A stretch of 62,979 bases of DNA, counting the filler, from Basidiobolus ranarum (taxonomy: Eukaryota): assembly GCA_040143965.1 (NCBI GenBank). It is 6 parts of 6 records of this genome, joined end to end, with 100 filler letters (N's around TTAATTAATTAA, not from the genome) between each part and the next. Parts side by side here need not be neighbours in the genome. Positions count along the whole stretch, not along the records: positions 52,592 to 62,979 come from JASJQH010000710.1; 5 more parts are not named here. One strand, written 5' to 3'. A program made the position numbers and the translations under genes. The notes below the pieces were generated by a model that ran no database searches, had not been told where the DNA came from, and saw nothing but the letters and a program-made list of their open reading frames with translations. Below, piece after piece: positions 20,951 to 62,979 of the stretch. Numbering within the stretch: the first letter of the stretch is position 1; each line of letters starts with the position of its first letter.

Positions 20951-20976
20951 TATTCTACACGTTAGTTTGTTTACAT

Positions 20977-27401: not shown

Positions 27402-29689
<2,288 letters not shown>

Positions 29690-31337: not shown

Positions 31338-31489
31338 TGTTGGAATCAGCATTGCCTAAACACTTATATTGTCATTTATGTTGAAATTAGCATTGCCTAA
31401 ACACCTATACAGTCATATATAGCTTAGTACTTAGTTATCTTATAATTCACTAAGATATTATCAATTATTCTCAATCGGAATTTACTTAG
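31338..31489 (+). repeat. LTR-like repeat at the contig end, same family as 20659-20950
   Basis: TGTTGGAATCAGCATTGCCTAAACAC followed by TGTTGAAATTAGCATTGCCTAAACACC..GGAATTTACTTAG, matching 20739-20849. Confidence 0.85.
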
Positions 31490-31589
31490 NNNNNNNNNNN
31501 NNNNNNNNNNNNNNNNNNNNNNNNNNNNNNNNNTTAATTAATTAANNNNNNNNNNNNNNNNNNNNNNNNNNNNNNNNNNNNNNNNNNNN
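31490..31589. other. artificial contig linker
   Basis: 44N-TTAATTAATTAA-44N. Confidence 0.98.
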
Positions 31590-31591
31590 GG

Positions 31592-41993: not shown

Positions 41994-42093
41994 NNNNNNN
42001 NNNNNNNNNNNNNNNNNNNNNNNNNNNNNNNNNNNNNTTAATTAATTAANNNNNNNNNNNNNNNNNNNNNNNNNNNNNNNNNNNNNNNNNNNN
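41994..42093. other. artificial contig linker
   Basis: 44N-TTAATTAATTAA-44N. Confidence 0.98.
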
Positions 42094-45000
42094 GCTCTCT
42101 CTTACGATCGTCAGTCAATGGTTTGGTGGTATTGGCATTATTTTCGGGCTCTACCTTTCTACGTTTGTTGGTCGAGTCCTCACGTTCATTGGCTTGTTCT
42201 TCTTTGGTATCTTTCAATACTTCCTTACGACGGTCACGGTTACCACGATCTCTACGATCCGAATCTCCGCGAGCTCCTAACCGATCTCGAATATTCTTAG
42301 AACGGTTATCTTCACTTGACACTACAGATCTAGCCTCGGATTGTGCTCGAGAGGATACTTCGGGTGTAGGATCCCTGCTAGCACGAACTCGTTCACGTTC
42401 ACGGTCACGACTGTTGCGAGAAGCTTCACGTGAATCCCGATTTTTATTATCACGAGAGACTCCAGATGGTCCTAAAAATTGACCTCGAGAGGCGTTATCA
42501 TTATTTCCCTTGCGTGCCTCTTTGTCATTTTCCCGCACTTCACGATTATCTTTGGCTTTGTTGTCAGGCTCATTGCGATTATTGCGTGAGGTAAGTGTAT
42601 TGGTGCGTCTGGTTTCATTATGGGATCTAGGGTTCTGGCGCTCATTGGATGTAGAATTGGCGGTGCCAGAGTTTTTGTCTCTCTTCTTACTGTCGTTGTC
42701 TTTGTTATTGCCAGAACTACGCGCACTATCACCTGATGTTCTATCAGCTCTTGAAGATTTCCTATCAGTACTACTTTTAATCCTTTAGCAATTTGTAAGA
42801 TACCTCGACATTATCCAATATATCTTACCTCTCACTAGAAGCGGTTTTGTCCTGTGGTGTGCCTTCATAAGATTTGGCATTCTGGCTTTCTTTTTTCTCT
42901 TCACCAGTACCACTAGCTTTCACTTCTGATGATTCAGTGGAGTTTCCTCCAGTGTTTTCTCTCTAAAAATATACATTCTAATGTAAGTCAACAGATCCGG
43001 TATTTTCAAGATAACACATATACTAACCGGTGGAACATAGTGGAATTGCTCATTAGATAACCAATTTGGCTTTCGTTTGCTCAATTTTGCTTGATAGCCA
43101 ATGGTCAGAATCTTTAGATCCTCTTTCTTCTCTGTTTCAACGATTTTGCCAACACTTTTTTCAACACTCAAACCAATCTTTCTGATGACAGGGAAGAATT
43201 CATCGATTTTGGTCAAGACCAGAATGGCATTACGTGTCTGCATATATTCATGAGATTCAAGGCAAGTGACAAAAGCCTAAATAAAATAATGTTAGCAGTT
43301 AATTGGATGACAATATATTTGCATAATTTACATACTCTATGTAGCTTGATATGCCACTTGTATACTACGTGGCGGTAATCTTCGTAGTCCAGCAAGTCTT
43401 CGTTAGGAACTTTTCCAGCAAGATATTGTCTTGGTCCAAGGCCCCATTTTTTCTGAAATCCCGGGAGACCATCACCTCTACCCTCCTACATACGTAAATT
43501 GCCTTGAGTAAAGTGAGATCGATGTGGTTTTGAATTTGGAAATACCTTGTCATAAAGAGTCTTTTCACCATGCCATGCAGAAATGATCGAAAGCGTTTCA
43601 CGAAGAAAGATGCCTAAGATAGAATAGGATTAGATATTGTCATAGGCATAAAAATACGATAACCATTACCATAGAAGTTTGCTTCTTTCTCCGTGCAAGA
43701 GAATATAGCACATGCTATATCGCTCAAAATACGATCGTATAAGGTCAAGCTAGAGAAGTTAGCCGTACCAATGCTGTGCATGAGTTTAATAAACTTAGCT
43801 GCAAACATGGCATCATTGGCTGAGAACAAACAGCGAGGGTGGACGCAGTATTGAATCAATTGGGTTATGATATCATATCGGTTAGAGCAACCGATAAACC
43901 AAAAGTCTTTCTCTACACGTAAACGAGCCATGGTCTTTTCATAGTTTGCAATCTGAGCACCAAGCTCGCGATCCAACTTGTCAATAATAAATTGAGCCTT
44001 TTCCTTCTCCTTTTTCTTACGATTCATAGATGTTGAGCTAAGATCATTACGATCATTATCAAGAGCATGGATAATTTGGCGTTGCTTGGCAATTTCTGCT
44101 TTGTACCTGTCTTTAGGAATATGTATATCATACAGGCTCAATTGCCAGAAAGTCACATAGAACTGAGGGCTGATTCCTTTCCAAGCGGCAACGGGCAAGA
44201 TTTCTGTCACATCCGAAATGATGTTAGAAAGACCTTTTTGCCATACTCCAGTACTTCTATCTTGAGGCCCTATAAAGTCTCTTTCTACCACAGGCTCAGA
44301 GGATTTGGCTTCATCCGCGTTTACCTCAGAGTTCGGTACGGTACTGTCGATTTGCATCGCAGCGCTAGTGTCTTGATTGACGATAGATGAAGTGTCATGG
44401 AGGGGAGCAAGTGGAACTGGGATTGTCTCTTGCAATGAAAGTTGGTAGCTCAACTTTGGGCGAATGATATGGAAAGCGACGTCTGGCTCAACCTTACACG
44501 TTAGACAGAGTTCGATCATAGAAGGAATTAACTTGGAATAAGTTATTTTGTCAAGGTTTGTCGCTAGCAATTCGATATACTGCATCAAAACCTCTTGACA
44601 TTCGTCAAACAGATTTCCCAATAATTTAAGATGGTCAATGGAATTAGAACCGTATACACAAGTTTCTCTTTGCTGAGAAATCAAGACTGCGAGTGGCGTA
44701 GCAAGATTTGATTCCACCAATCCTCTTGTAAGGCGACTTGAGGATTTCTTTGTACTTTTAACATTATTCAAAACGGAAAAAGCCTCGCTTTTCAAGGTTT
44801 CTCCTCCAGCCATAGCAGCTAGTTGAGCATCACTAGCACTGCCATACCCTTCAATTCCAGCCATTTTGATGATTAATTCCTTGAGAACAATCAAATCGAA
44901 AGAATTATCATTTTTCAGCTGATTGGCTACATACTGCAGAATTCCAGTCAAGTCCATGAGCGAATATTTACGGAATACAGTTCCGCAAAAAGCAGCAAGA

Positions 45001-48000
45001 CCTACAACGTACCAGTTAGACAGATTCAAAATCACGGATTTAACATTTACCAACCTTGTAGCCAATGAGCTATACTAGTGCCATCATTCTTTAGTCGTGG
45101 CTTCATAGGATTAGACAATGATTCGAGCATAATGTCTAAAGCAAAGTTATATTAGTGCCATCACACCGCGACATGAGAAAGCAAACCATATACATACATG
45201 TAAGTACATCATAGCCAAACGGAGTCAAATACTTGCAAGCATCAACCACAGGAACAACCAAATTATCGTAAGCTTGGATTTGATCAAGAACAGTTGTAAA
45301 GACTATGGTAGGATTCGAGTGTGATACTTTAGCTAGCATACGCCCATATTGCTTGACATTCTCTTTTGAAATACGTCTGTTGAAGGATGAATATTAGAAA
45401 TGTAATGTAATGAACACAGGTTTCATTTTTACCTCATTATAGATTTAGTATCTTTAACCGTCTTGCTCTTGGCGACTTTGAGCTCTGGGAAATTTTTATA
45501 AGAATCGACCTTCCACTCGCCATACAATCCATATCTAGAAAAAAATGAATACGAATGCAACACTTATGTTCCAGTTATAAAAACACTAACCTAACAGGAT
45601 AAGGCAGATGCTTCAATACGCTCCAAACTTCGTTAACCATTCCTTCAATTACAATTGTTAATATCGCTTGATAGTGAAAGCTGATTCTTGTTTCAGAATG
45701 TACCTGGGTTAGCATTAATCAAGGAAATTGTCGGAAGGAAATAGACACGGATCATATCAATCCAAGTTTTTTTCAATTTGCTGTTAGCCGATAGCTCCTT
45801 CATCACAGCTTTTCCAAGCCTACACAGCTTTCCGACTAAAATCAGATCGCGAGAAATCCGAACACCAGTAAACTTCAGTAGAGAGTTTAAGGTTTTGTGG
45901 ACTTCATCCAGCCTGACACAACGCAAGATGTTTGCACTCCATTGAGGGTAATAGAACTCATATGTGGTATGTCTCGTATTAGCAGGTAACTTGGTCGATA
46001 TCAAAGGAATTTTGATTGGGTTTACTGGTCTATCGTTTCCAGAGCTAGAATGACGATATTTAGGACGAAATTTAAGAGCTATAGGATGAGTTAGTCGTCT
46101 ATTCGGGCTGTACATTCGGTACACGTCTTCAATCATAACATGCATGATTCGACATAAGTTATCAGCAACATCAGGTTGTGTGGCACTCATATTCGGAAAT
46201 TTGTATAAGAAAAATGAGGCGTGCTGTAAATCTCCAATAGCAAGTAATGCAGCTGTGAGCCCAGCTTTATGATTGGGAAGTGGGCGTGGAAGTGCTGTAG
46301 GCTGTTTTTTCTTAATTACTAAAAAGTTTCACAACGATTGAAGATAAAAATACTAACTTCTGGTATCTCAGCATCATTTGCACCATAGGTAGCGTTACTA
46401 CTTCCATCACCAACATCTTCATCCACCAATGCTGCCATCATCTATGAACAATTAAACTAAATACAATTTCTTTCTCAAGGTTATTAACAAAAATCATACT
46501 GTAAGTGCGTTAGACCCAGTACTAAAAGCTTGATCGTCCATCTTGTCTTTAAACTTCTTGTATTCCTCTTCAACTTCCTTATCATTCGGTGATAACTTAA
46601 AAACCATTGGGTTAGAAACGTATTTTAAATACCATTTGACTATAAAATAACCATCTTACGTGAGGGTAGATGTCGCTTAAATCAACAAAACCTTCCTTAA
46701 TAAGCAATGCAGTAACAGCGTATAATTCTTCTGGGGTTTCTTCTTCAACATCAGGATTCTAAAAATATATTAAACTAAATTAATATTTAAAGTAAAGAAA
46801 TATCCATTAAATCATCTCTATTACCGAGTAGTAGCTGTATTTAAAGCCTAATATTTGCCCACAAACTTTGCTTCCTACTTCTCCAGAACCAAGCATTGAA
46901 TCCACAGGTATATCATCAACGTCCGATTTAATAATGGGCTGAGACGCCCGTGGTGCCCAGGATGAATTTTTCAAAAGTGCGAGAAAGAAACGATAATGTT
47001 TAGCGACGTTAGTGATAAAAACCTCCAGTATGACATCAAGAACTCTGTTGGGATCAAGATCAAAATAACCTAAGAGAAATAAAAAATGAGCAAAAAAGCA
47101 TAAAATCGATTCGTTACTCTAGTCCATACCGATCAAAGTCATAACATTTTGTAAGACTTCGTTTACACGGGCTTGTATGGCCGGCTCTTCTTGGTTATCA
47201 AAAGAAGAGTCAGTATTGGATGTTAGCTCAGTAATCAACTTGGCGTATCCCTCAGACTCTTCACGCAATAAATTGAATTTTTGTTGCTTATATCTAGAAT
47301 GTTGCAAGGGGTGAGTTAAATAAGCTCGGATGCTTCAAGCGTAAAATTCTTGAATGACATACAATAACGATGTGTTGATTCGGATAGCTTTCTTATTGAA
47401 CATTCTAAATGAGGCAATAAGGCCAATAGTCTCCAAAAACTGCATTTCTAAGCGTTCCTTCATCATAACAGTGGATATAAAATCTTTGTTCTAGTAATTA
47501 ATTACTGATTTAGTGAAAATAAACGAGTCTCATATAATATAGAAATATATTACCAGTACGGCTTTAGTAACTTCAACTAGTCGCTGTCGTTCGACTTTAA
47601 ATTCAGGCTCTTCTGTCTCCATGTCCAACAACCATATGGTATCGATAATAGACGCACCAACGTCCTGCTTCGAACCGTATTCTTGGTGTATGTCTTGTAG
47701 AAAAGATACCACTTCCGGAGCGGTCAGTTGGTTGAATTTGACAAATTTGTACAGACTTTCGTGGATCGCACGTGACAAAGGGGCAACAGTTTCATCGGGG
47801 GCGGATTGGTTAAGCAGTTCGTGAACTTTTTGTAATCTTCATTCATTGAAAAAGCCGACAGGGTGTTAGAAAGGACTCATATTGTTTTTTAATTGTCTCA
47901 TACGAATCGCGAGTTTCTTAGTAGCGATCTCGAATCCGTGTTGGAATTGGTAAATGTATTAAACTTACGCCTGTGATTTTCCTGTTACCTCCCAAGTGGC

Positions 48001-48039
48001 GACCAGATCGTTCGTGATAATGGAAGTAGGGAACACCAT
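42094..48039 (-). CDS. THO2: THO complex subunit 2, many exons, 3' end truncated
   Basis: [91 protein letters not shown] and an R/D/S-rich charged tail. ATG at 48039. Confidence 0.95.
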
Positions 48040-49549
48040 GATAGCACAGGTTGTAATCAAAACCTATGTTTTACTTTGAAAATGTAAAAGTTGAAACTTC
48101 CTAAAAAAAACTATATAGGTTCAAAGAGTGAAGAACTGAAGTGGAAACGGCTACGATAAATCAAAAACCGTCAGGGGTTTGGGAGTTAATCATCATTATT
48201 TTCCTCATGTTACCGCCTATATCACGTGATAGTCAACCTTAACAGGTAGCATATAAGCAGAATCGTTATCATGTTAAATTAAAGATATTTTGGTACGCAA
48301 TCTCAGTTGAAAATATCGAATACTACCCAGGTATTTTGAGTTAAAAAAATTGCATCTGATTTACCCTAAATGCTCATCAAAATTGAAAAATGTTCTTTTC
48401 ATATATTTTTCGACAAGTCCTTGTGAGAGCGAAAGTTGCCTTTAAGAAGCTGTATTGATTATTGCTGGCAATAATTGAAGGGAACTCTTAAAATCGGCTT
48501 ATTACTCTTTACGAAACATAGGAACGATTTTTAATGTCTTTCCAGATGAACACTATGCACAGACCCTACTTTACGCATTTAGTTTATTCAGACTGGAGTG
48601 TTAAATCAATTTGGTAGAGCTATAATGGGGGGAGGCTTATTTTTGGTTATTAGTGCTCATAGTTGCATAAGAATTAGATTCCTCGGAAGAAATGTCCCTG
48701 TTGGCCAACATCTGTGAACATAAAAAATTAGAAAAGCTGAATGAAGGAGTTCGAACTAGTTTGGTACCTTTGATATGAAATGGAGAAAGAAAAGATAGGA
48801 TAACAGGAAATGATATCGTTGCAACTGGATATACCCTAACGATTAAAAAAGTATATGTTTTATTAAGTAACCCGTTTTGCCGAATATATCTCGGAGACTA
48901 AGTATGATAGCGTCAAGAATCAGTCAGATCGCAGAGTCCCGGTCTCGTACGAACTATCTATCAATATGGATGGTTCATCTAAATGTACAGTTGAAGAGTC
49001 AAGTGTTTCATTTTGATTATCATGGTTGTTAGCCATGGGTGCGCTTCCTATCTTCATTCAAGAAAATTAATCGATTAAGCATTCCAAACTGGAGACTGCA
49101 AAAACCTGGCAGAAAGCAATAAACTAACCCCAATGCTCTTATAACCAACTGACACCATTTTGCTTGGTGAAAGGCTTCTCTTTGTATCTGGTTAATTACT
49201 TGATTAGCGAGTTTGGGGAATAATACTAATTGAGAGTAGCGATTTGCTATAAATGATTGATTCTCTTCATGGCCCAATTAAAAGGGTCGGCCAGTTCACT
49301 GGATATTTACTTTTGTAAGATATCATATCGAAACCGTCATTTGTCTATTTACAAAGATTGAGAATTACATCACTGAGTCATAATAGCCTACCCTCGCTAA
49401 TATGGAGTGGTACATCAGACACATTGTACCTATTTTTACCAAACTCCACCTGAAACCAGATGATCTGATTTCTTTTTCCCGTGCATCGTATAAAGTCGCT
49501 TCCTTGAGTGGATAGTCCTTTATTCTCTAAGAGCTTACACTCTATTTTG

Positions 49550-50900
49550 ATGACATCTTCCACGGGAGAACCTCTGGCTTCACAGCCCTTGCTCCCCAAA
49601 GCCTCTAACCCTGACCTAAATAGTACTAGAGTTAGCAGATTGACTTCCACCTTAAAAAAGCAATGGTTTTTAATCTCTTTGATGTCTGGAATCATATTTG
49701 CATATTTATATCCTAGTCTGGGTAGAAAGGGGGGCCCTTTGAAAACAGGTATTCTTACTCTCATAATTGTAAACTGGCGATTTTACTAATCTTTTTTCAG
49801 AGTACACTGTTAAATATGGTGTCGTCTCTTTAATATTCTTGTTGAGTGGCCTTTCTATGAAAACCAGAGTTCTGGCACGTACCATTATGATGTGGCGACT
49901 TCACTCAGGTGCGGATTGCTTTTTACGAACCCATGTATTATGTATGGTTCATCAACTCACTTTTCTTCAGTTGTCCAATTCATTTCGCTTTGTCTTATTC
50001 CTTTCTTCGTGTATGGCGTCTCCAAGTTGCTAAACTTGACTCCCATTAACAAGTATCTGTTGGCCGGGTATGTCTAGTTGCTGTGATTTTAGTATGAGGC
50101 GATTATTCAATTTTGAATTTTATTCTAGTCTCATTGTTATGTCGTCCACTCCGACCACGATCTCTTCAAACGTTGTTATGACCAAAGCTGCTCTTGGGAA
50201 TGAATCAGCAGCTTTGACAAATGCAACCCTTGGCAATGTACTGGGTGTATTTATCTCGCCATTGTTGTTCTATGGATTAATTAGTGAGTCCCTTGTTCCG
50301 CATTCAGGCTCAGACACTTCTGTTGGATTATTGAGAGTATTCATAGAGCTTGGAATAACTGTAATACTCCCTGTCATCATTGGGCAAATTATCCAATTCA
50401 TTGCACCGAATAAGGTTGCTTTTCTACAAACCAAGGTCAACTTTTCAACTCTCAATAGTCTCAGTTTGAGTACTTTGATCTGGAGTGTATTTTGTGATAC
50501 TTTCTCCAACCAAGAACTTCAAATTGGAGTGGGTTCTTTGCTTTCTATTATCGCACTCGACGCAATGTTCTTTGCAATCTTCAACAGTTTCTCCTTCTTT
50601 GTGTCAAGGATTCCCGCTTTCGGGTTTTCACGCCCAGACACTGTCGCTATTATGATGTGCGCTGGAACTAAAACAGTACGTAAAGGGTTTAGTTGGACGA
50701 TATATAATGACATGTTTTGAGCTAATTTATTGTTGCAGGTTAGTTTAGGCATTCCCTTGTTGAACCTTCTATTTGAAGGCAATCCTAATATTGGAGTTAT
50801 GACCATCCCACTGTTGGTGTATCATGCAGAACAGTTGATATTCGGAGCTATTCTTATTGATTACCTTAAAAGTTGGGTAGAATCGGATCCTGAGCTTTAA
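49550..50900 (+). CDS. RCH1: SBF-like sodium/bile-acid cotransporter family protein (SLC10A7/Rch1), multi-exon
   Basis: QWFLI, GRKGGPLK, YGVVSLIFLLSGLS, PTTISSNVVMTKAALGN, LGNVLGVFISPLL, MCAGTKT|VSLGIPL, PLLVYHAEQL. GT-AG introns. Confidence 0.9.
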
Positions 50901-51526
50901 CCAGATCCATTCTCTAGTTGTACTTTGCCACAATCTTTAAATCTTCGGTGCATGAAGCCTTGATAATAAATCTATATACGAACAGTGCTTGCTACTAGAT
51001 ATGAAGAAAACGTATGGGTTTCTTTAGATTGGGGCAATGAGCCCATATGGCCCAAGTAGTTTGACCAATATTGCTCAAGCTCAAAATCGCGTGTCAAACT
51101 GTAGTCTTAAGGCAACATGGGGTAATTCACGGATAATTTACAACAGTCTTCGGGTCTATTCGTTTAGGCAAATGAGTCATGATGCTGGTGAATACACAAG
51201 TCTACCGTGTTATTCTAAAAATAGTTGGGGACAAGCGGTTCGCTGATCATCTGCAACATCACGATTTATTCCGGTTACTTTGATTTTCATTTGAAAATAT
51301 ATACCTTTATTTACTTCTGAAGAGTACGCATGTGTTGCACAAGTTTAGTGGGTGGAACTAGGAGGAAATCATTGGTATTTGGTTTCATATAGAAGGGTGA
51401 GAAAAGTGTAAGAATAAACATCACTTTGAACTCGAGGCAAGAAAGTTTGCATTGCATGAATTTGTCAATGTAGGTTTAGGTGAGTAATAATAGATATGCC
51501 TCCACGTTCGGTTTCCTTTCGAAGTT

Positions 51527-52200
51527 TCAGCGATTGGAGAGAACGAGTTCTAAGAACTAATAGCCCAACATATTAGTCACCATCATTGTACTTTAGAAAG
51601 ATATGCCCGACTACAATCGTACCTGTTCATAGTTAATAAGTATCCAACCATCACTATCGGTGTCAAAGCGACGGAATGATTCAGTCAGTGAGCGGATGGT
51701 AACACAAATCTGTATAAAATTGTCAAACGATAGATCTCCTCTACCTATATTTTCACCAGCAGGTTTAAATTTACGTCCTTGATATAGAGCTAATGAATAT
51801 AGGAGAACAGATACCTCTGCCATCATATTTACGAATTAATAGGCTGATGAACTGTGGAGTAAGATTGTAGCCAAAAGCTCTCAAAGCCTCTTGTAGTTCT
51901 TGAGCATCAATATACCCACTATGATCTTTATCAAAGCCTAGAAAGCATCTTTGCCAATCTTCAATGTACCGCCATAATCCTGCAAATTCTTGGTAGTTGA
52001 TAGTGCCATTGTGGTCACGGTCAAACAAGTTTATCATCAACCGGACAGTTTCAATGTTGAATGGGGTCCAGTTGCCTAAACGTACGATGAAAAGGTTAGA
52101 TCGCATAAGAAGGTAGCTATATACAAGAAATGTGGAGTATTCAGTACCATTTGTCAAAGCCATTTGAAGCTCATCAGCAGTAATATCGCCTGATTTGTCC
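51527..52200 (-). CDS. PEF1: penta-EF-hand calcium-binding protein (peflin/ALG-2); 5' exons not found on this contig
   Basis: DKSGDITADELQMAL, NWTPFNIETVRLMINLFDRDHNGTI, FDKDHSGYID..AFGY, FDNFIQIC..FRRFDTDSDGWI.I.YEQ|FLELVL. Confidence 0.9.
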
Positions 52201-52491
52201 CTATATATCATAAGAGGGTAAGTAAAGTCCACCAAATAGAAATATTGCCAAAAATATTTCTTCAAGTGATTGTACACGCGTGCATTTGGTGGGCCTCAAT
52301 CAAAGTTAGGCAAAGTAGTCAAAATCTTGATTAATTCTCAATACATGCATACTCAAAGATATCCATTGAGAGCTCTAGACTTAAGACACTATGAATAAAG
52401 CTTTCATTATCTTTTGAATGTGTAATAATGTCTAAAAGTACTTTTCTTAAACATACCACATGAGTAAAATACACTGTTTCCAAAATGGTAA

Positions 52492-52591
52492 NNNNNNNNN
52501 NNNNNNNNNNNNNNNNNNNNNNNNNNNNNNNNNNNTTAATTAATTAANNNNNNNNNNNNNNNNNNNNNNNNNNNNNNNNNNNNNNNNNNNN
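52492..52591. other. artificial contig linker
   Basis: 44N-TTAATTAATTAA-44N. Confidence 0.98.
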
Positions 52592-52593
52592 AT

Positions 52594-55500
52594 CCTGCCT
52601 TTTTCTTTGCACTCAAAGAAGAAATTCCTGATATCTCCAAGGTGAATATCTTGACGAAGACTGGAAGCAGTATCAATGAACTCACTCAATATCGTTACCA
52701 AGTTATCATTCAAGTCGGCACAAATGATGAGAGTGAAGCCATTGAAGATTGGGTTGACTATCAAGAATCATGTCTGACTGTTGACGACATCAAGAACAAT
52801 CTTCTTCAAGGAGATATTGAATATTATGCTGTTGAAAATGTCCCTAATCTGAGGTTAACGAATGAGGTAGCTCTCACCAAGATATTGAAGTCAGAGAAAT
52901 ACCAAGAGTTGACCGTTGAAAGTGTAAGAGAGCTAATGTATAACGCGAAGTCTACTGGCGTTCATGTTGATGATCTGTATACCATTGGTGAAGACACTGG
53001 TTTCAATGTTAGTGTCAGCTGGAATCGTCAACAGAACGATGGATGCTTTGATGTCGTATATACCAAAGCACGTCAAGTATCATCGAAGTACCACTTTAAA
53101 CAACCCGGTTACAGCCTGTGGAACTGGAAATCATATGGAAACAATCCTATGATTGGAGTGGTGAATCAGTTGTTTATTCCATCTCTGCGTGACAAACTCT
53201 CGACGACACTACCAAAATTCATGATCCCAAGTTCAGTTGTAGTCTTAGATTCTCTGCCACTCACATCAAATGGCAAAATCAATCGTCGAGCATTGCCAAC
53301 TCCAATTTCCTATCATTCTGAAGATGATAAGAATTTTGTTGCACCGAAGACTGATCATGAGAAGACCTTGACGAATATCTTTTCCGAGGTACTTGGTATT
53401 GAAAAAATTAGTATTCATGGAAACTTCTTTGATTTAGGAGGTCACTCGTTGTCGGCCACTAAAGTAATGTCGCGTATCCGTGTTGCACTTGGTCAAGAAG
53501 TACCTTTGAAGATGCTCTTCGAAGCTCCTACAGTATCGTCCCTGAGTGAAAGACTCAAAAATTATCACGGTATCACTAGCAGCGTTCATAGTATCATTCC
53601 GGTGATGAAACAGTTGACGGAGAGAAATCAATTGCCATTATCGTTTGCTCAGGAGAGACTCTGGTTTATGAATGAGTTAATCCCAAATAGTCATTTCTAC
53701 AATATGCCCCTTTCGTTGCTCATCTCTGGTGATTTGAATGTTGATGCCTTAAAGCAATCCATCCTGGATGTCATTTGGCGACATGAAACTCTGCGAACAA
53801 TATTTGTGCTTTCTGGGAGTGAACCAGTTCAAGTAATCAAATCAACTGCATTCTTCTCATTATCATTCATCGATCATAACGAGGACTGTTGTGATTTGGA
53901 TATGGCGAAATTAGTGGTTGTTGAAGAGTTCAGAAAACCATTTGATTTGGCAGAAGGCCCGTTAATCAGAGTGAAACTGTTACCACTACAATCTGGCGAA
54001 TATGTACTTTGCATTGTGCTTCATCATATCATCTCAGATGGATGGTCTATCACTGTTCTACAAAAAGAGTTGGCTAGCTTGTACGAATCAAATACTCAAG
54101 GGACTCCATCGTCGTTACCGAAACTGGTTATTCAGTATGCTGACTTTGCTGTTTGGCAGCGCGAGTGGTTGCAGGGCGAGATTCTTGAAAAGCAACTACA
54201 ATATTGGAAACAACAGTTAGACGGAATTATCCCCCTGAACTTGCCCATTGATTTTGTAAGGCCATCAGTTCTCAGCTATAACGCCAAGATCGAAGTGCTA
54301 CATTTAGATCCATCATTCACCCAACGTTTAAAGGAACTAAGTAAGATGGAATCTTCCACACTGTTCATGACCCTCCTGACGGCCTTTGAAGTTCTCCTCA
54401 TGAAGTACACGGGCCAGGAGGACATTGCTGTTGGCTCTCCAATAGCAAATCGTAACCGCAAAGAAATTGAAGGGTTGATTGGTTTCTTTGTCAACACCCA
54501 AGTGATTCGAGTTCAAATGGATCATGAGATCACCTTTAGTGAGCTTCTTGGCCGCGTCAAGGATGTTACATTGGGTGCTTATAGTCACCAAGACATCCCA
54601 TTTGAAAAAATTGTAGCTGAACTTCAACCGGAACGTGACATTAATAGAAATCCTGTAGTTCAAGTGATGTTTGCTTTGCAAGATGCTACGATCGATGACT
54701 TCAAGTTGGGAGAAATTAGTGTTAAACCTGTTGACACCGGAGAGATTACTACTAGATTTGATCTTGAGGTACATTTCTGGAAACATGATGACGGTCTGAA
54801 AGCCGATTTCATTTACAGCACCGATTTGTTCAGCTCAGACACGATATTCAGAATGATTTCGGATTTGCAGAAAATATTGAACGCTGCTGTTGACAATCCT
54901 TACCAGGCCATAGGGACCTTGCAACTTGTAGATCATCCAGAACGGGAGAATCTACTGGTGACAATGAACATGACTGGAACTGACTATCCACGCGATCAAT
55001 CAATTGTTGACATTTTTGAGCAGCAAGTTCGCAATACACCAGATGCGATCGGTGTAATCCATAATGATGAACAGCTCACTTACCGAGAGCTGCACCTAAT
55101 GTCAAATAAGCTAGCTTCTTACCTTATTACTTTCGGCGTCAATCTGGAGTCTTCCGTTGCTATATGCATGGAGCGCTCAACCCTAATGATAGTAGCTCTC
55201 CTAGCTGTACTCAAAGCTGGCGGTGCATATGTTCCGTTGGACTCTCAGTACCCCACCGATAGGTTGCGATTCATTCTCGACGATACAAAGTCCGATATTG
55301 TAATATGTCAAAAATCAACTTTTTTGACCATACCAGCAGGAGATTATAACATCATAAGTTTAGATGAGAATATCGCGTCTATCATGGAATTGTCGGAAGA
55401 ATTGGTTTGCAGGCGCCCATCATCTTCGAATCTAGCTTACACCATATATACTTCTGGCTCTACTGGAATTCCTAAAGGGGTACTTGTGGAGCATCGCTCT

Positions 55501-58500
55501 GTAGTTCGCCTAGTTAAAAACACTGAGTATATTAGTATCCAAAGTAATGACAAGATTGCTCATATTGCCAGTACCTCCTTCGATGCTGCCACTTTCGAAG
55601 TTTGGGGCGCACTTCTGAATGGGGCCACTTTAGTGTGTATCAGCCACTCAGATGTTATTGACTTGGCTGCTCTTTCCAGGAATATGATCAACCAATCAGT
55701 CACAATAATATTCTTGACTACAGCACTATTTAATCGTGTTGTTGAGGATGCTCCTTCAGTATTTAACCGAGTCAAACATGTTCTATTTGGTGGTGAAGCA
55801 GCAGACAACCGGTTTATTCAGAAATTTTTAGATATATCAAACCGCCCCAGATTATTACACGTATACGGTCCTACCGAGAACACCACCTTCTCCACTTGGT
55901 ACGAGGTTAACCAAATCTCAAACAATATTCCTATTGGAAAACCGCTCTCTAATGGCAGAGTATATATTCTTGATAATCATTTCAACCCAGTTCCAATCGG
56001 ATTCGTTGGCGAATTATGTCTAGCTGGCGATGGACTGGCCCGAGGCTACCTCAATCAACCTGAGCTGACTGCTCAAAAGTTCATAGCCAATCCTAACTTG
56101 GAATGCAATGGCGAAATAATATACCGCACTGGAGATCTGGCTCGTTATAGAAGTGATGGTAATATTGAGTTTGTTGGGCGCATGGATCATCAGGTGAAAA
56201 TTCGTGGCTACAGAATCGAATTGGGTGAAGTAGAAAACACTCTCTTGCAACAAGATTCAATCAAGGAATGTGCTGTGGTTGCTCGTGATGATCCATCTGG
56301 TGAGAAACAACTGGTTGCCTATGTCGTTGTCGATTCCAACTCAACCTCTGGAATGGATACTCAGCAAGTGAATGAATGGGGCACTGTATTCGACCAACAT
56401 GTGTATGATGACATGGATGAAGACTTAGCTGAGCCTTCGTTTAATATCACTGGCTGGAAATGCACACTTACTGGTGAAGATATTCCCGCTGACGAGATGA
56501 GGGAATGGTTAAACGATACACTTGCTGGAATTAGACAACTGGGTGGCGACGATATTCTCGAGATCGGTTGTGGAACTGGAATGCTGCTCTTCGAAATAGC
56601 CCCTCATTGTGATCACTATGTTGGCACTGATGTATCCACCGCTGCTTTATCCTATGTCAACAAGTACCTCGATACATACTCTCTTCGTGATAAGGTCAGA
56701 CTAGAGAAACGTAGTGGAGATCAGCTGGATGATATGGAAAAAGGTGGCTTTGACACTGTGATATGCAACTCAGTAGCTCAGTACTTCCCCAACATTGACT
56801 ATCTCAAGACTGTGGTTGTGAAAGCTGTCAAACTCTTACGACCAGGAGGTCATATCTTCCTCGGTGATATTCGTAGTCTTGTGTTATTGGAGCACTTCCA
56901 TTCGGCCATGGAGTTGCATAAGGCTCATAATGACCTTACAGTAGCCGAGTTGGAGCAACGTATAGCAGACAGCATGCTGAGTGAGAAGGAATTGCTTGTT
57001 GATCCTGCCTTTTTCTTTGCACTCAAAGAAGAAATTCCTGAGATCTCCAAGGTGAATATCTTGACGAAGACTGGTAGCAGCATCAATGAACTCACTCAAT
57101 ATCGCTACCAAGTTGTTATCCAGGTCGGTACAAGTGATGAGAGTGAAGTCATTGAAGATTGGGTTGACTATCAAGAATCATGTCTGACTGTTGACGACAT
57201 CAAGAACAATCTTCTTCAAGGAGATGTTGAATATTATGCTATTGAAAATGTCCCCAATCTGAGGTTATCTAACGAGATCGCTCTCGTCAAATTATTGAAG
57301 TCGCAACATGCTCAAGAATTGATAGCTTCAAGTATAAGAAAGCTACTAGCCGATGTTCCCCTTACAGGAGTTGCAGTCAATGAATTATTTGATATCGGTC
57401 AACATTCTGGCTACGATGTCAATGTTAGTTGGAATTGCCATGAAAACGACGGATGCTATGATGTAATATATACTAAGCACACGCTTTCTAATGTGAGACA
57501 ACATCGCTTCAAGGAGCCGAGCTTTAGTCGTTGGAACTGGAAATCTTATGGTAATAACCCCATGAACGAAGTAGTGAACCAACAGCTCTCACCCTACCTA
57601 CGTGATTATTTGCATAGTGTGCTACCAAAGTTTATGGTTCCTAGCACTATTATTATATTGGATTCTCTGCCCCTTATGCCAAACGGTAAAATCAATCGTA
57701 GAGCGCTACCGGCTATCACCTCGCGTGTAGATGATGACAAGAATTTTGTGTCGGCTAGGACAACCCTCGAACAGACTCTGTGTGACATCTTTACGGAGGT
57801 ACTAGGACTGAAGAGGGTCAGTATTTTAGAAAACTTCTTTGATCTGGGTGGTCACTCATTGACTGCTACCAAAGTCATATCTCGTATTCGAATTGCGCTT
57901 AATCAAGATGTTCCGCTGAAATATTTGTTCGAGGCTCCCACGGTAGCGTCCCTTGGCGAAAAGCTGGAATCCAATCTGAATGCCCTCAATGGAACTAGTT
58001 TGATTCCTACTTTGAAAAAAGTGACTAACCGAGATAATTTACCATTATCTTTTGCACAAGAACGACTTTGGTTTTTGAATGAATTAATCCCGAATAGCTC
58101 ATTCTATAATATGCCTGTTGTATTGAATTTTACGGATAAGTTGAATGTGGATGCTTTGAAAGAATCAATTGTGGATATTGTTAAGCGCCATGAAGCCCTG
58201 CGCACAACGTTTACACTCTCTGATAATGGGCCAGTTCAGGTGATTAATGCTGCCACAAATGTTGCTCCCTCATTCATCGAATACTCTGATGTCACTTACG
58301 AGCCGGAGCTTGTGAATTCGATGATTGTTCATGAATCTGAAAAGCCATTCGACATAGCCGAAGGCCCGCTAATTCGAGCGAAACTTATTCGTGTGAAGCC
58401 TGATGTGCACGTCCTTATAATTGTACTTCATCATATTATATCAGACGGGTGGTCCATCACCGTTCTGCAAAAGGAGTTGGCTGCTTTATACCAGTCCAAT

Positions 58501-59487
58501 TCACTTGGTCTTTCATCTCCATTGCCTGATCTAACCATTCAGTATGCAGACTTTACTGTTTGGCAACGGGAATGGCTACAAGGCGAAACACTCCATGCAC
58601 AGCTGAAGTATTGGAAAGAGCAACTGAAAGATATTTCGCCATTGGCCTTACCAACCGACAAGATTCGACCAGCAATTTCAAGTCATCGTGGGCGTCTACA
58701 TAGAATTTATATACCGGAGTCTTTGACGAAAAAGCTGCGAGTAGTAAGTCAACAGCATACTACCACCTTATTCATGACTCTCTTTGCAGCATTCGGAGTT
58801 CTACTTAATAAGTACACGGAACAGGAGGACCTCGTCGTCGGATCACCCATTGCTAATCGTAATGTTAAAGAGATAGAAGCGTTGATCGGTTTCTTTGTCA
58901 ACACACTTGTACTCCGCCTTCAAGTCGATTCTGAATCAACCTTTTGTGAAATCCTGAATCAAGCCAAATCAGTTACTCTGGATGCTTCTACATATCAGGA
59001 TGTACCATTCGAAAAAATTGTAGCTGAGTTACAACCAGAACGTGATCTAAGTCTCAACCCTCTTGTTCAAGTTGTATTTGCCTTACATGAGCTCTCGATT
59101 ACTGATTTTGACGCGAAAGACTTCAACATTGATGGCCATGGTGACCAACAGACAACTTCACGCTTAGATCTGGAAGTTCATATACATCCGCATGGAAACA
59201 GTCTACGAGCGGATGTTATATATTGCACAGATTTGTTCGTTCCAAGCACAATTGAACATATGTTTGAAGGATTTATTCATATTTTGGAGTGCATAGCTAT
59301 TGATCCTCAAGTAAGCATTGGCAATCGAAGATGCGCCTTCAGTATTCAACCATGTCAAGCAAGTTCTCTTTGGTGGCGAAGCGGTAGACCATCGATTTGT
59401 CCAGAAATTCCTCGACATGTCAAATCGACCCCGATTATTACACGTATACGGTCCTACCGAGAACACTACTTTCTCCACTTGGTATGA
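52594..59487 (+). CDS. multimodular NRPS, 5'-truncated: (nMT/A-sub)-T-C-A-nMT-T-C; goes out of frame at ~59323
   Basis: T motifs NFFDLGGHSL (~53420, ~57830), C motifs HHIISDGWS (~54020, ~58430), A motifs YTSGSTGIPKG, FDAA, YGPTE, YRTGDL, QVKIRGYRIELGE, and SAM motif LEIGCGTG (~56557). No introns. Confidence 0.96.
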   Translation, partial: PAFFFALKEEIPDISKVNILTKTGSSINELTQYRYQVIIQVGTNDESEAIEDWVDYQESCLTVDDIKNNLLQGDIEYYAVENVPNLRLTNEVALTKILKSEKYQELTVESVRELMYNAKSTGVHVDDLYTIGEDTGFNVSVSWNRQQNDGCFDVVYTKARQVSSKYHFKQPGYSLWNWKSYGNNPMIGVVNQLFIPSLRDKLSTTLPKFMIPSSVVVLDSLPLTSNGKINRRALPTPISYHSEDDKNFVAPKTDHEKTLTNIFSEVLGIEKISIHGNFFDLGGHSLSATKVMSRIRVALGQEVPLKMLFEAPTVSSLSERLKNYHGITSSVHSIIPVMKQLTERNQLPLSFAQERLWFMNELIPNSHFYNMPLSLLISGDLNVDALKQSILDVIWRHETLRTIFVLSGSEPVQVIKSTAFFSLSFIDHNEDCCDLDMAKLVVVEEFRKPFDLAEGPLIRVKLLPLQSGEYVLCIVLHHIISDGWSITVLQKELASLYESNTQGTPSSLPKLVIQYADFAVWQREWLQGEILEKQLQYWKQQLDGIIPLNLPIDFVRPSVLSYNAKIEVLHLDPSFTQRLKELSKMESSTLFMTLLTAFEVLLMKYTGQEDIAVGSPIANRNRKEIEGLIGFFVNTQVIRVQMDHEITFSELLGRVKDVTLGAYSHQDIPFEKIVAELQPERDINRNPVVQVMFALQDATIDDFKLGEISVKPVDTGEITTRFDLEVHFWKHDDGLKADFIYSTDLFSSDTIFRMISDLQKILNAAVDNPYQAIGTLQLVDHPERENLLVTMNMTGTDYPRDQSIVDIFEQQVRNTPDAIGVIHNDEQLTYRELHLMSNKLASYLITFGVNLESSVAICMERSTLMIVALLAVLKAGGAYVPLDSQYPTDRLRFILDDTKSDIVICQKSTFLTIPAGDYNIISLDENIASIMELSEELVCRRPSSSNLAYTIYTSGSTGIPKGVLVEHRSVVRLVKNTEYISIQSNDKIAHIASTSFDAATFEVWGALLNGATLVCISHSDVIDLAALSRNMINQSVTIIFLTTALFNRVVEDAPSVFNRVKHVLFGGEAADNRFIQKFLDISNRPRLLHVYGPTENTTFSTWYEVNQISNNIPIGKPLSNGRVYILDNHFNPVPIGFVGELCLAGDGLARGYLNQPELTAQKFIANPNLECNGEIIYRTGDLARYRSDGNIEFVGRMDHQVKIRGYRIELGEVENTLLQQDSIKECAVVARDDPSGEKQLVAYVVVDSNSTSGMDTQQVNEWGTVFDQHVYDDMDEDLAEPSFNITGWKCTLTGEDIPADEMREWLNDTLAGIRQLGGDDILEIGCGTGMLLFEIAPHCDHYVGTDVSTAALSYVNKYLDTYSLRDKVRLEKRSGDQLDDMEKGGFDTVICNSVAQYFPNIDYLKTVVVKAVKLLRPGGHIFLGDIRSLVLLEHFHSAMELHKAHNDLTVAELEQRIADSMLSEKELLVDPAFFFALKEEIPEISKVNILTKTGSSINELTQYRYQVVIQVGTSDESEVIEDWVDYQESCLTVDDIKNNLLQGDVEYYAIENVPNLRLSNEIALVKLLKSQHAQELIASSIRKLLADVPLTGVAVNELFDIGQHSGYDVNVSWNCHENDGCYDVIYTKHTLSNVRQHRFKEPSFSRWNWKSYGNNPMNEVVNQQLSPYLRDYLHSVLPKFMVPSTIIILDSLPLMPNGKINRRALPAITSRVDDDKNFVSARTTLEQTLCDIFTEVLGLKRVSILENFFDLGGHSLTATKVISRIRIALNQDVPLKYLFEAPTVASLGEKLESNLNALNGTSLIPTLKKVTNRDNLPLSFAQERLWFLNELIPNSSFYNMPVVLNFTDKLNVDALKESIVDIVKRHEALRTTFTLSDNGPVQVINAATNVAPSFIEYSDVTYEPELVNSMIVHESEKPFDIAEGPLIRAKLIRVKPDVHVLIIVLHHIISDGWSITVLQKELAALYQSNSLGLSSPLPDLTIQYADFTVWQREWLQGETLHAQLKYWKEQLKDISPLALPTDKIRPAISSHRGRLHRIYIPESLTKKLRVVSQQHTTTLFMTLFAAFGVLLNKYTEQEDLVVGSPIANRNVKEIEALIGFFVNTLVLRLQVDSESTFCEILNQAKSVTLDASTYQDVPFEKIVAELQPERDLSLNPLVQVVFALHELSITDFDAKDFNIDGHGDQQTTSRLDLEVHIHPHGNSLRADVIYCTDLFVPSTIEHMFEGFIHILECIAIDPQVSIGNRRCAFSIQPCQASSLWWRSGRPSICPEIPRHVKSTPIITRIRSYREHYFLHLV

Positions 59488-61144
59488 GGTTAACCAAATT
59501 TCAAATAATGTTCCCATTGGAAAACCGATCTCTAATAGTAAAGTGTATGTCCTTGACCGTCAATTCAACCCAGTTCCAACAGGATTCGTGGGCGAGCTTT
59601 GTGTTGCTGGTGATGGACTTGCTCGAGGTTATCTAAATCAATCCGAACTAACTGCTCAGAAGTTCATAGTCAACCCCAATCCTGAATGTGGTGGGGAGAT
59701 AATGTATCGAACTGGAGATTTGGCTCGCTTTAGAAGTGATGGCAACCTTGTATTTGTTGGACGTAGGGATGACCAAGTGAAAATCCGCGGATATAGAATT
59801 GAATTAGATGAGATCAGGAACGCATTACTCAAGCATGAAGGGGTCAAAGAATGTGTAGTAGTTGTAAATTCGGAAGCTGATATCAAGCGTATTGTTGCGT
59901 ATATCATTAAGGATATGGTAGAATTGGAGGTAACCGAGGATTCTTTGAAAGCGCATCTTGCCAACTCATTACCCAAATATATGCTACCCTATGCAATACT
60001 TATGGTGGATAATATACCCCTTTTGCCTAGTGGAAAACTAGATATTCGCTCTCTCTCGACATTGGCTTGCCTTCCTCTAGCGCAAGAAATTTCTTACGTG
60101 GAACCACAAACACCATTAGAGATTGGAATAGCTAACATAATGGCAGATGTTCTTTCTTTGGAACGTGTCGGATTGAATGATAATTTCTTCGATTTGGGCG
60201 GCCATTCTTTACTCTCGATCCAATTGATCTCCAAGGTCCGAAAGCTTTTAGGAGTAAGCATTAGCTTGCATATGCTTTTCGAGGCTCCAACTGTCTTTAT
60301 GTTGGCCAAGAATGCTAGTCTTCGAAATCATGAAAATAACAGTGAATCCATCGACAGCCCGGTAGTTATGTTACGGGAAGGAGGAGATGAAATCCCAATT
60401 GTCTTGATTCATGCGATTGGTGGTGGTTTATCGTGCTATCAGCCTTTGCTGAGCTGTTTAAAGCATGATGGACCTATATATGGAATATATGCTTCGGACT
60501 TTTTGGGTCTTCTACGTAGAAAGTCATTCTACAATGTTGAAGATATGGCTCAGTATTATGTAGAGTCACTCATGGAACTCTCGGGAAGAAGGAAATTCAT
60601 AGTTGGAGGCTGGTCTTACGGTGGTAATATTGCTTTTTCCATTGCTGTGGCACTCCAAAAAATAGCGGTAGATGTCCCTTCAGTCTTCCTTTTCGACTCG
60701 TATCCTCTCTTTGGAATCGAGTGTTACGAGAAATATTCAATGCCACTTGCTACGATGATCATTAAGCTTATGAATCAAATGCATGAATCCACTGAAATAC
60801 CCGGTCAAGAATTTCATATGATACGGGATCTGTTTGGGTTGAGTAACAATTTCTCCAGAGATGATGAGGTAACACTGGAACTGCTAACCAGCGCACTCAA
60901 TCGAATCTCTCATATGCGACAATATCAGCCTGATAAGTATACTGGTACCGTGTGTCAATTCAGATGTTTACTTGACAAGTTTGACTATGTCGAGGATACT
61001 AGCAGCTTGCAAGATAAATGGTCAACGCTCTTTGAGGGCAAGTATATCACTAAATCGGTGAAAGGTTCTCATGCCACCATGTTACAATCACCTTATATTG
61101 AGAATATTGCGACAGAGTTGGAAATGTTTATCGAAAGCCTATGA
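59324..61144 (+). CDS. NRPS terminal part in a shifted frame: C-terminal half of A, then T and type I thioesterase
   Basis: LFGGE, HVYGPTENTT, YRTGDL, QVKIRGYRIEL, NFFDLGGHSL; TE motifs LIHAIGG, GGWSYGG, FLFDS, GSHATM; stop at 61144. Confidence 0.93.
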   Translation: MEDAPSVFNHVKQVLFGGEAVDHRFVQKFLDMSNRPRLLHVYGPTENTTFSTWYEVNQISNNVPIGKPISNSKVYVLDRQFNPVPTGFVGELCVAGDGLARGYLNQSELTAQKFIVNPNPECGGEIMYRTGDLARFRSDGNLVFVGRRDDQVKIRGYRIELDEIRNALLKHEGVKECVVVVNSEADIKRIVAYIIKDMVELEVTEDSLKAHLANSLPKYMLPYAILMVDNIPLLPSGKLDIRSLSTLACLPLAQEISYVEPQTPLEIGIANIMADVLSLERVGLNDNFFDLGGHSLLSIQLISKVRKLLGVSISLHMLFEAPTVFMLAKNASLRNHENNSESIDSPVVMLREGGDEIPIVLIHAIGGGLSCYQPLLSCLKHDGPIYGIYASDFLGLLRRKSFYNVEDMAQYYVESLMELSGRRKFIVGGWSYGGNIAFSIAVALQKIAVDVPSVFLFDSYPLFGIECYEKYSMPLATMIIKLMNQMHESTEIPGQEFHMIRDLFGLSNNFSRDDEVTLELLTSALNRISHMRQYQPDKYTGTVCQFRCLLDKFDYVEDTSSLQDKWSTLFEGKYITKSVKGSHATMLQSPYIENIATELEMFIESL

Positions 61145-62979
61145 TTTCGTTTCAACGCTTGTTAAGTGATACTCAGGTGAGAGTAGTACTTGTCAATATA
61201 TTATTCGTGTCTCTTGTACTCAATTCATAACGAAAGCAACAATAAAGAATGCTATTCAAAAAAATATTAAGCTTGGATCTCTCTTCAACGACTACCTTTT
61301 GTTTATGAGACTGAGGCTAATATAGATCCCTCCAGTGAGAATGTACAAAAAATATACAAGACCCAAAGAGTTATTCTTGTGAGATTGGGTCCTTGATCGT
61401 ATGATAAAGGGCTAAAGGTTGTTCTCATGGTGAAGAAGTTAGATCGTATTTGACAGATAAAAACTCAATACGAAATAACAAAGTTAAAAACCAGAGTTAT
61501 CATTAATCCAAGTTATTGTAACTATTCAACCAATTAACGTGATAATTTGGTACTTTCCAAAAGTATACAACCGATTCTTGAACACCATGCCGTCGATAAG
61601 TTGTACACTTGTATTAATAAATAATATTGACATGAAAGTGCTTTTCACGAACAATGATTCTACAAGAACTGTAAATTCAGAAATTCAGATGTCACTAAAA
61701 TATAATAATAGTAGTCCAGACGCACTATATGGTAAAATAGTTTTATTATTATTTGATTGGAAGATGGAAATCCGAGGATATTTTGGAGCAGATTGCAACC
61801 ATGTTATTCTAGCGTGAGAGAATGGGTTTAAACTTATCTTCATCACTCCTGGTTTAATTAATTGATAATCTACGGCATTTTGAACAATTGAGATTTTGGA
61901 TAGAAAATTATAAATATCTTATTACCATATTTCAATTTCATCATTAATCGAGTTACCATCATATCTTTTGGATTAAAGTGAAATTTTCTTCCTCTAATCT
62001 CCCCTTTGTCCTTTCGACATGGGCTATGTTTAATGCTGAACGATAAATCTCAACTAAATCAGCAGCTACATTACACAGCAACAGGCATTCTCTGTTGATT
62101 TCAGAAAAGGTCGAGTGAATCGCATTAGTTTGCCTTTAGACTAGCAGGTTAATTCCATCGTAGTAGGATTTCAGATAGTTCGGTAGTTCCAAGCATAAGT
62201 AAGAGCATGGTGTAAGAATGTCATGCATCTTTATAACGTACTTGACTCGTTCAGAGTAGAATGTTGCCTGGTGTACCGATTTTTTCAAACCGAACTTACA
62301 AAGCCAGGTAGATTAAATTTTCTTTGATTTTTTGTTTGCAACGAAGTAAACATGGTTTAAGTTAATGCCCTCAGAAAAGGAATTCACATCAAATCAAAGA
62401 TCAGATTGTTGAGCTTGACTTTTGCTATTTAAAATCATCATAAGGCTTGCAGTATTCGTTAGAGAATTACCAATTTAAATAATAGGAAATACGTATGGGA
62501 TGTCGAAGAAGTTATTGAATGTTGTGTATTTTTCCAGTTTCATCTGATTTTCCAAGAACTGTCTAAGTAATGGATTCGGAAATTGGACTGTGTAAGATAT
62601 ACACTAGCGCTCATAACTGATTCACTTTTTGGCATACATTGTTTCAAATGTCAATATCTCTTCATTTCCTCAATGTATTAAATCGATATTGGCAGTCTGT
62701 CATGTTTTGAAGTTGACTGCAACAATCTTTGTGATGTTACAACCTTTTATATATATTGCAGTGAGTGAGTTAGTTTTGAGTGCAACATGTTCATTGCACT
62801 AAAATTTCTATTTTATTTGAGAGCCAACATTTTAACATGATGGTTTGGCCATTGCCATTACATGTTGTTGGATAATTAATCTTTATTCAACATCATAGTT
62901 AACTTTAGTTATGATACATATATCAGAAATAGAAAGCAATGTATCTATAGCCCCTATATTCTAAATAGGAATATCTCTA

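Follow-up and report, generated by a model that had tools for sequence, protein, structure and literature searches.

A bacterial-type, N-methylating nonribosomal peptide synthetase family, probably resident in the fungus Basidiobolus ranarum

The window analyzed here is a 62,979-base stretch of DNA from Basidiobolus ranarum, a fungus of frog guts. It consists of six pieces, each about 10.4 kb long, placed end to end, and our subject is a nonribosomal peptide synthetase (NRPS) gene confined to the final piece (52592-62979; 10,388 nt). This contig carries the 3' part of B. ranarum K7432_010368, one member of a small, bacterial-type, intron-poor NRPS family that probably resides in the fungal genome. 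The protein matches the NCBI entry 'hypothetical protein K7432_010368 [Basidiobolus ranarum]' (2719 aa) at 100%, so the bacterial-type, LCL-like, thioesterase-ended NRPS that the original prediction placed in an early-diverging fungus belongs to B. ranarum itself. Judged by sequence comparison, the architecture and the condensation (C) and adenylation (A) domains are clearly of bacterial type.

Architecture and predicted product

The domains and motifs of the gene can be read directly from two open reading frames (ORFs), one in frame 1 (52594-59487; 2297 aa), stop-free and starting directly after a spacer, and one in frame 3 (59315-61144; 609 aa). The coding stretch had been described as more than 8.5 kb without introns. 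The domain order of that description stands, but the stretch is not one frame: the two ORFs are joined at 59324-59326 by a frameshift, with a loss of 274 aa. Similarly, the proposed series ..nMT-T / C-A-nMT-T / C-(A)-T-TE, where nMT is an N-methyltransferase, T a carrier domain, and TE a thioesterase, is correct in order, with the first nMT reduced to its C-terminal ~194 aa and the third A domain to motifs A5-A10. In full, the order is (nMT1 C-terminal part)-A1 tail-T1 / C2-A2-nMT2-A2 tail-T2 / C3-A3 remnant-T3-TE, with these coordinates:

52594..53175, + strand: nMT1, C-terminal ~194 aa only; units 1 and 2 share 60% amino acid identity
53176..53310, + strand: A1 tail, A9/A10 region; NGKINR at 53269-53286
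53365..53556, + strand: T1 carrier domain; LGGHSL at 53434
53623..54957, + strand: C2 condensation domain, LCL-like; HHIISDGWS at 54022
55015..56346, + strand: adenylation core of A2 with A1-A8 intact; DAFFLGVTFK as specificity code
56347..57585, + strand: nMT2 N-methyltransferase, between A8 and A9/A10; LEIGCGTG at 56557
57586..57710, + strand: A2 tail; NGKINR at 57682-57699
57772..57960, + strand: T2 carrier domain, by Pfam and motif
58030..59325, + strand: C3 condensation domain; HHIISDGWS at 58429
59311..59359, + strand: 49-nt 'intron' (GTAAGC...AG) that the public gene model requires
59324..59326, + strand: site of the deletion and frameshift; AAT (59323-25), the final codon in frame 1, shares two bases with ATC (59324-26), the first in frame 3
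59324..60037, + strand: A3 remnant, A5-A10 kept and A1-A4 missing, by Pfam, alignment, and motifs
60128..60304, + strand: T3 carrier domain, by Pfam and motif
60395..61144, + strand: TE thioesterase; GWSYGG at 60608, stop codon 61142-61144
61145..62979, no strand: 3' flank, gene-free and AT-rich; 1.83 kb, 33% GC

Pfam returned Condensation twice (9e-221 for the protein), PP-binding three times, Thioesterase, and Methyltransf_12 (9e-18), together with one full AMP-binding domain and a partial one covering only profile positions 284-384 of 384. The C-domain motifs quoted in the original prediction (LSFAQERLWF, HHIISDGWS, and GSPIANRN..EGLIGFFVNT) are all present and their coordinates were mapped: LSFAQERLWF lies at 53638 and 58045, and the third motif reads GSPIANRN.KEIE.LIGFFVNT at 54433 and 58840. 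LGGHSL occurs in three copies. The gene thus has the features of a modular type I NRPS, with HHxxxDG in C, an A core, GGxS in T, GxSxG in the TE, and a colinear order, the exception being the third A domain. Assignment of the C domains to the LCL type follows from the PDB ranking and from the T-C order, in which Pfam over the gene found no epimerization (E) domain between T and C. Among PDB entries, C2 matches Txo1/Txo2 (7e-96) and TycC PCP-C (3.5e-81) best, while SrfA-C (2e-39), TycB (7e-32), and the fungal psoA C domain (1e-36) are weaker; the LCL and DCL labels of these entries, and the second N-terminal HH motif of the dual-E/C type, are taken here as we assume them to be. For A2, the PDB matches are LgrA, ApnA, McyA, TycA, and GrsA.

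The second methyltransferase interrupts its A domain, with A8 at 56176-56220, LEIGCGTG at 56557, and NGKINR at 57682. Its S-adenosylmethionine (SAM) motif is intact, and it is 35-41% identical to nMTs of bacterial NRPSs. Only the C-terminal part of nMT1 is seen because the contig begins inside that domain, and this remnant carries no SAM-binding motif. Release by a GxSxG thioesterase, as originally proposed, agrees with the Pfam Thioesterase domain and its GWSYGG at 60608. The best PDB match of the TE is the Pks13 TE (2.6e-13), to which GWSYG and the Asp of LFDS align; these positions are presumably catalytic. The TE (60395-61114) is far more divergent from its bacterial counterparts than the C, A, and nMT domains are (41-49%): the best bacterial TE among 360 proteins compared is only 25% identical, and identities above 60% are confined, among the proteins compared, to the three TEs from Basidiobolus.

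The A2 code, DAFFLGVTFK, recurs in two other B. ranarum proteins, K7432_017285 and the A2 of K7432_006735. Its ten positions were placed by motif anchors on an alignment, with no structural alignment. In the accessible text of PMC2533009, the same code is printed for OciB-A5 and OciC-A7, where the peptide positions are Ile or Val, and that of PMC13122637 prints it for Ile-activating domains of the aeruginosin/suomilide pathways. The code predicts that A2 activates Ile, giving N-methyl-isoleucine (N-Me-Ile) residues. In the mechanism that we propose, the residue activated by A1 and A2 would be aliphatic, Ile by prediction; the methyltransferases between A8 and A9 would N-methylate the thioester-bound residue with SAM as donor; and the LCL-type C2 and C3 would join L-residues with no epimerization. 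The last module would add one residue, aliphatic by prediction, and the TE (Ser of GWSYG; Ser-Asp-His) would release the peptide, probably through cyclization, giving a predicted chain end of ...N-Me-Ile, N-Me-Ile, X. The peptide with at least two consecutive N-methylated residues that was first proposed is therefore also what we predict for the assembly line, but the copy at hand, with its crippled last module, may make none. The predicted N-methyl-isoleucine residues are a concrete target for mass spectrometry.

Family members, fungal residence, and origin

The closest relatives of the NRPS are four other B. ranarum proteins, K7432_006735, _014021, _017083, and _017285, and at least five paralogous fragments, 50-75% identical, are present in this assembly. 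K7432_006735 (2980 aa, on a 17.3-kb contig) is the second-best match at 75%; beyond the two B. ranarum proteins, identity falls to 34-47% among the matches listed. The other three are fragments found through a query with the tail of the gene, among 120 matches listed. K7432_006735 resembles the NRPS in its sequence (75.6% identity over 2051 aa), its order T-C-A-nMT-T-C-A-T-TE, and its A2 code DAFFLGVTFK, and differs in having a complete last A domain (code DAFFIGGTFK) and a first visible module without nMT. In K7432_014021, T-TE comes immediately after an nMT-bearing module. K7432_017083 covers A-T-C, and all that is left of its nMT is a ~45-aa scar separating the A8 and A9 regions, which reflects either the deletion of a whole domain or one more gene-model patch. 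The A-nMT piece K7432_017285 lies on a contig of 2.26 kb and stops within the nMT stretch where the NRPS contig begins; its last ~40 residues match nMT2 and differ from the NRPS contig's own start at 2. It is plausibly the upstream neighbor of the NRPS contig. Over its first 300 nt, that contig matches the equivalent stretch of nMT2 at 92% identity, a repeat that explains the assembly break at the contig start.

Codon usage was compared through relative synonymous codon usage (RSCU). The NRPS correlated with seven pooled Pfam-supported ORFs of eukaryotic contigs at r = 0.805, against 0.29-0.74 when each of the seven host ORFs was left out and compared with the rest, and 0.02 and 0.53 for out-of-frame controls. 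None of 80 bacterial homologue loci reached 0.805 (maximum 0.744, in low-GC Nostocales; median -0.36). These loci came from one genome per prokaryote species (185,579 species genomes), where 585 of 588 candidate stretches were relatives and the best 80 were retained, with best-segment identities of 34-48%. A scan of prokaryote genomes with the single protein P0029 as query gave 27 pattern matches, none confirmed; the 80 loci come from a scan with an alignment as query. Host-like composition of this kind fits the ameliorated, acquired gene that had been suggested.

Protein searches gave no close sequence outside the genus. With a module query against 5.8 billion proteins (lengths 1263-4020 aa), the best non-Basidiobolus identity among the matches listed was 47%, and C2 alone reached 49% with its best bacterial counterpart among the matches compared. 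The 120 matches listed for the module query comprise 2 from Basidiobolus, 49 with bacterial names, and 69 without an organism name; no Dikarya sequence is among them, and a search of 4021-5000-aa proteins had no Basidiobolus sequence among its 120 listed matches. The 609-aa tail had 207,830 matches at E<=0.001 among representative proteins, and all 150 listed, ranked by summed score, are multi-module NRPSs of 4.6-7.9 kaa.

That bacterial-derived NRPSs occur in Basidiobolus, as the original prediction noted, is reported in PMC7466969, which we cite here and below for its accessible passages. There, bacterial-type NRPS genes of B. meristosporus have normal coverage z-scores, are expressed, contain a median of 0 introns, and are host-like in GC, codon, and 5-mer content. 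Two features used for that Basidiobolus set are also seen here: the best matches outside the genus are bacterial (all those with an organism name, at no more than 49% identity, among matches listed), and composition is host-like with few or no introns (RSCU 0.805, two long open frames). Considering that the family is multi-copy, that no bacterial sequence comes close, that a long flank is non-coding, and that B. meristosporus provides a precedent, we favor residence of the NRPS in the fungal genome, unproven as it is for this contig.

Several points weigh against this interpretation and the product that goes with it. In whole-contig tetranucleotide composition, the NRPS contig correlates with the others at 0.84-0.89, versus 0.89-0.97 among those, a lower value that is expected because the contig is more than 80% coding. 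Low-GC cyanobacterial homologues come near in codon usage, up to the 0.744 given above, and the NRPS contig has no other gene or intron, with nothing physically tying the NRPS to the fungus. The specificity (Stachelhaus) positions follow what we take to be the GrsA numbering, and the divergent TE would suit either cyclizing or hydrolytic release. PMC10964425, in its accessible text, describes basidiosins and meristosporins, the peptides known from Basidiobolus, as cyclic pentapeptides made of both D- and L-residues, and an E-less fragment would not introduce the D-residues of basidiosins. N-methylation is not mentioned in the accessible parts of the literature on Basidiobolus cyclopentapeptides and basidiosins, and the product of this NRPS family is therefore probably something else.

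The same evidence speaks to the idea that the contig stems from a bacterial symbiont or a culture contaminant, which we regard as very unlikely. A contaminant would account for the bacterial-type architecture, for a contig with neither intron nor eukaryotic neighbor, and for the fact that all organism-named matches outside Basidiobolus are bacterial (49 of 120 listed, 69 being nameless). The original prediction had argued for a fungal locus from spliced neighbors, an argument that falls away, as these housekeeping genes (TIP49, Tho2, and others) are on different contigs and so provide no physical linkage to the NRPS. However, the codon usage of the gene is nearer to fungal ORFs than is that of any of the 80 bacterial homologues, paralogous fragments of 50-75% identity are in the same assembly, and no prokaryote-genome or metagenome protein among the matches listed exceeds 49% identity. 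The 1.8 kb downstream are gene-free and AT-rich, as first described; an ORF-free flank of that length at 33% GC, its longest stop-to-stop frame only 109 aa, would be unusual for bacteria. Moreover, related Basidiobolus NRPS genes sit among fungal genes and are transcribed (PMC7466969).

We infer an ancient bacterial origin for the gene. Domain trees were built from best-matching segments by quick searches, with no bootstraps, midpoint rooting only, and composition warnings. C2 and C3 of the NRPS and their K7432_006735 counterparts, C2' and C3', make up a single clade (SH-aLRT 100) with the pairs C2/C2' and C3/C3', which means that the modules were duplicated before the gene was. In the 97-row C tree, the nearest neighbors of this Basidiobolus clade are the metagenomic proteins P0006/P0086 (support 46), joined by P0026/P0029/P0054 (78), then Hydrogenedentota and Hyalangium (71), then Verrucomicrobiae, Candidatus Angelobacter, and Caldilineaceae (94). 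A specifically cyanobacterial donor was considered and is unsupported, with 0 cyanobacterial rows in the 20-row neighborhood of the C tree. With the exception of one long Chitinophaga row, all bacterial nMTs of the 39-row tree, 36 in number, fall in a set (SH-aLRT 95) that excludes the two Basidiobolus sequences, which sit on a long branch. The C and nMT trees identify no donor lineage, and the cyanobacterial/myxobacterial-like source first suggested finds no backing in nearest C neighbors that are metagenomic and then of mixed phyla, or in nMTs outside the bacterial ones sampled. ESM Atlas leads put the TE and nMT nearest bacterial thioesterase and class I methyltransferase clusters; this library is biased and was not used for origin.

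An alternative, unlikely in our estimate, is that the family was not acquired from bacteria but is an ancient lineage of fungal enzymes allied to the cyclosporin/beauvericin (CYCLO) synthetases of Dikarya. The A domains of a similar B. meristosporus model, 387529, are sister to the CYCLO clade (PMC7466969), and the long nMT branch outside the 36 sampled bacterial sequences could be read the same way. Yet PMC7466969 also lists 387529 as a horizontal gene transfer candidate with a bacterial best match. The C domains nest among bacterial and metagenomic sequences with moderate support (SH-aLRT 94, 15-row set), bacterial LCL structures are much better matches to C2 than the fungal psoA C domain is, and release is through a TE.

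The break in the third module

Aligned with the paralogue K7432_006735, residues 198-2244 of the first ORF correspond to 51-2097 and residues 4-609 of the second to 2372-2977; paralogue residues 2098-2371 (274 aa) have no counterpart in the assembled NRPS. By alignment, the lost segment is the N-terminal core of A3 with motifs A1-A4, and the motifs YTSGSTGxPKG and SFDA occur once each in the whole gene, both in A2. Lacking A1-A4 and carrying a frameshift, the last module as assembled could not load an amino acid, and this crippled module means that the K7432_010368 copy may make no peptide.

The public protein K7432_010368 reads ...ECIAIDPQ/QVLFGGEA... at the junction (slash marking the join), which its gene model reaches through the 49-nt 'intron'. 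In the downstream frame, 59311-59359 encodes IEDAPSVFNHVK, colinear with VEDAPSVFNRVKH of A2 and the paralogues. Because it encodes colinear A-domain residues, the 'intron' is most likely a gene-predictor patch over the frameshift, as comparison of the reading frames indicates; a true intron was considered and rejected as unlikely. The public model is thus wrong in the 3' module, where the 'intron' hides both the frameshift and the 274-aa loss.

Over 480 nt, the A3 remnant differs from A2 with a nonsynonymous rate (dN) of 0.087 and a synonymous rate (dS) of 1.19, a dN/dS of 0.07. Together with the 609 open codons downstream of the shift, this ratio implies that the damage is very recent or an assembly artifact, and the assembled copy is either a paralogue that lost its function very recently or a gene with a local assembly error. 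If the loss of A3 and the frameshift are artifacts, the real gene would be an intact, functional C-A-T-TE like K7432_006735, and we give this a substantial chance, somewhat short of even. The assembly does break at repeats within the family, since the contig begins in an nMT repeat 92% identical to nMT2 and K7432_017285 terminates in the same repeat; the strong purifying selection on the remnant, its open codons, and the complete last A domain of the paralogue point the same way. But the sides of the junction share only 2 nt, which a k-mer path switch would not give. The remnant is only 80% identical to A2 at the DNA level and identical to no other family member compared, and hence no mere fragment of some other copy. 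K7432_017083 likewise shows a domain-sized loss.

A more speculative reading, which we think improbable, is that B. ranarum has a recently expanded bacterial-type N-methylating NRPS family remodeled in the fungus by domain-sized deletions into a series of edited assembly lines making peptides rich in N-Me-Ile, of a kind so far unreported from Basidiobolus. On this reading, the truncated C-(A*)-T-TE module might even retain a role as an off-loading unit. The loss of the A core here, the K7432_017083 scar, the K7432_014021 fusion of an nMT module to T-TE, and the nMT-less module of K7432_006735 would then, with the same low probability, be examples of such remodeling. Differently built B. ranarum copies could explain peptide diversity within the genus. 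As a separate observation, the A3 remnant is a mosaic that suggests past recombination between modules: its initial ~70 residues (59327-59530) are closer to A2-type domains than to the paralogue's A3, and the remainder (59530-60037) is closer to the paralogue's A3.

Known systems and the remaining contigs

Compared by description, the Dikarya cyclosporin (simA) and enniatin/beauvericin synthetases resemble the NRPS in having the nMT within A and in making consecutive N-methylated aliphatic residues. Dikarya N-methylating synthetases release by terminal C-type domains, not by a TE.

The nearest described system is in the same genus. In PMC7466969, B. meristosporus gene model 387529 (ORX93211.1) is tetramodular, with four A and four C domains, two N-methylation domains, and a TE; it is the most highly expressed NRPS gene, with a tentative link to cyclopentapeptides. 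Its protein probably exceeds 5000 aa. The fragment (A-nMT)-T / C-A-nMT-T / C-A*-T-TE would fit its modules 2-4, a likeness drawn from description and not from sequence. Against the single gene there, TE-bearing relatives number at least three in B. ranarum, and the NRPS copy has a truncated last A domain. The expansion of bacterial-type NRPSs in Basidiobolus was already described in 2020 (PMC7466969), and with a TE-terminated, two-nMT Basidiobolus NRPS in print since then, the existence of such a gene is not new. No biochemically characterized N-methylating Basidiobolus NRPS was found in the accessible literature on Basidiobolus nonribosomal peptides. The original remark that no characterized example was known from these lineages consequently holds for biochemistry but not in silico, where 387529 is an expressed precedent.

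Cyanobacterial McnC/OciB, of the cyanopeptolin/oscillapeptin pathways, share C-A-nMT-T with the nMT between A8 and A9, are 39-42% identical over the whole 1401-aa module, and include the Ile code DAFFLGVTFK in OciB-A5/OciC-A7 (PMC2533009). They are not the nearest branch in the C or nMT tree, and the NRPS has no Ahp-type chemistry. In these synthetases, the residue methylated by the nMT module is aromatic, giving Phe(Me) (PMC2533009), while the substrate predicted here is aliphatic. Mortierella alpina also has bacterial-like cyclopeptide NRPSs (bioRxiv 10.1101/2020.08.21.262279); by description only, these are similar in being bacterial-type enzymes of an early-diverging fungus that make cyclic peptides, and different in phylum and in that the accessible text does not mention N-methylation.

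The pieces of the window and the spacers between them are as follows:

1-10451, 10552-20976, 21077-31489, 31590-41993, 42094-52491, 52592-62979: the six pieces, with lengths falling from 10451 to 10388 nt
10452-10551, 20977-21076, 31490-31589, 41994-42093, 52492-52591: five identical spacers, N44 + TTAATTAATTAA + N44

Because the pieces are separate contigs, adjacency across spacers is meaningless. An Rfam scan of the NRPS contig gave 0 matches, and blastn of its 3' flank against the other five contigs found no similarity. The following genes are on contigs other than that of the NRPS:

1191-2594, - strand: TIP49/RuvB-like ATPase, in one 467-aa frame
3124-4185, - strand: ribosomal protein L2 family gene
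6506-8344, + strand: CitMHS/ArsB-type transporter
43614-46328, - strand: Tho2/THOC2, spread across several frames

Helicase C domain and C2H2 zinc finger genes are likewise on the remaining five contigs. Within the NRPS contig, a 165-aa stop-to-stop frame (54337-54834, - strand) runs antisense to the C2/A2 region and is probably a chance frame within coding sequence.

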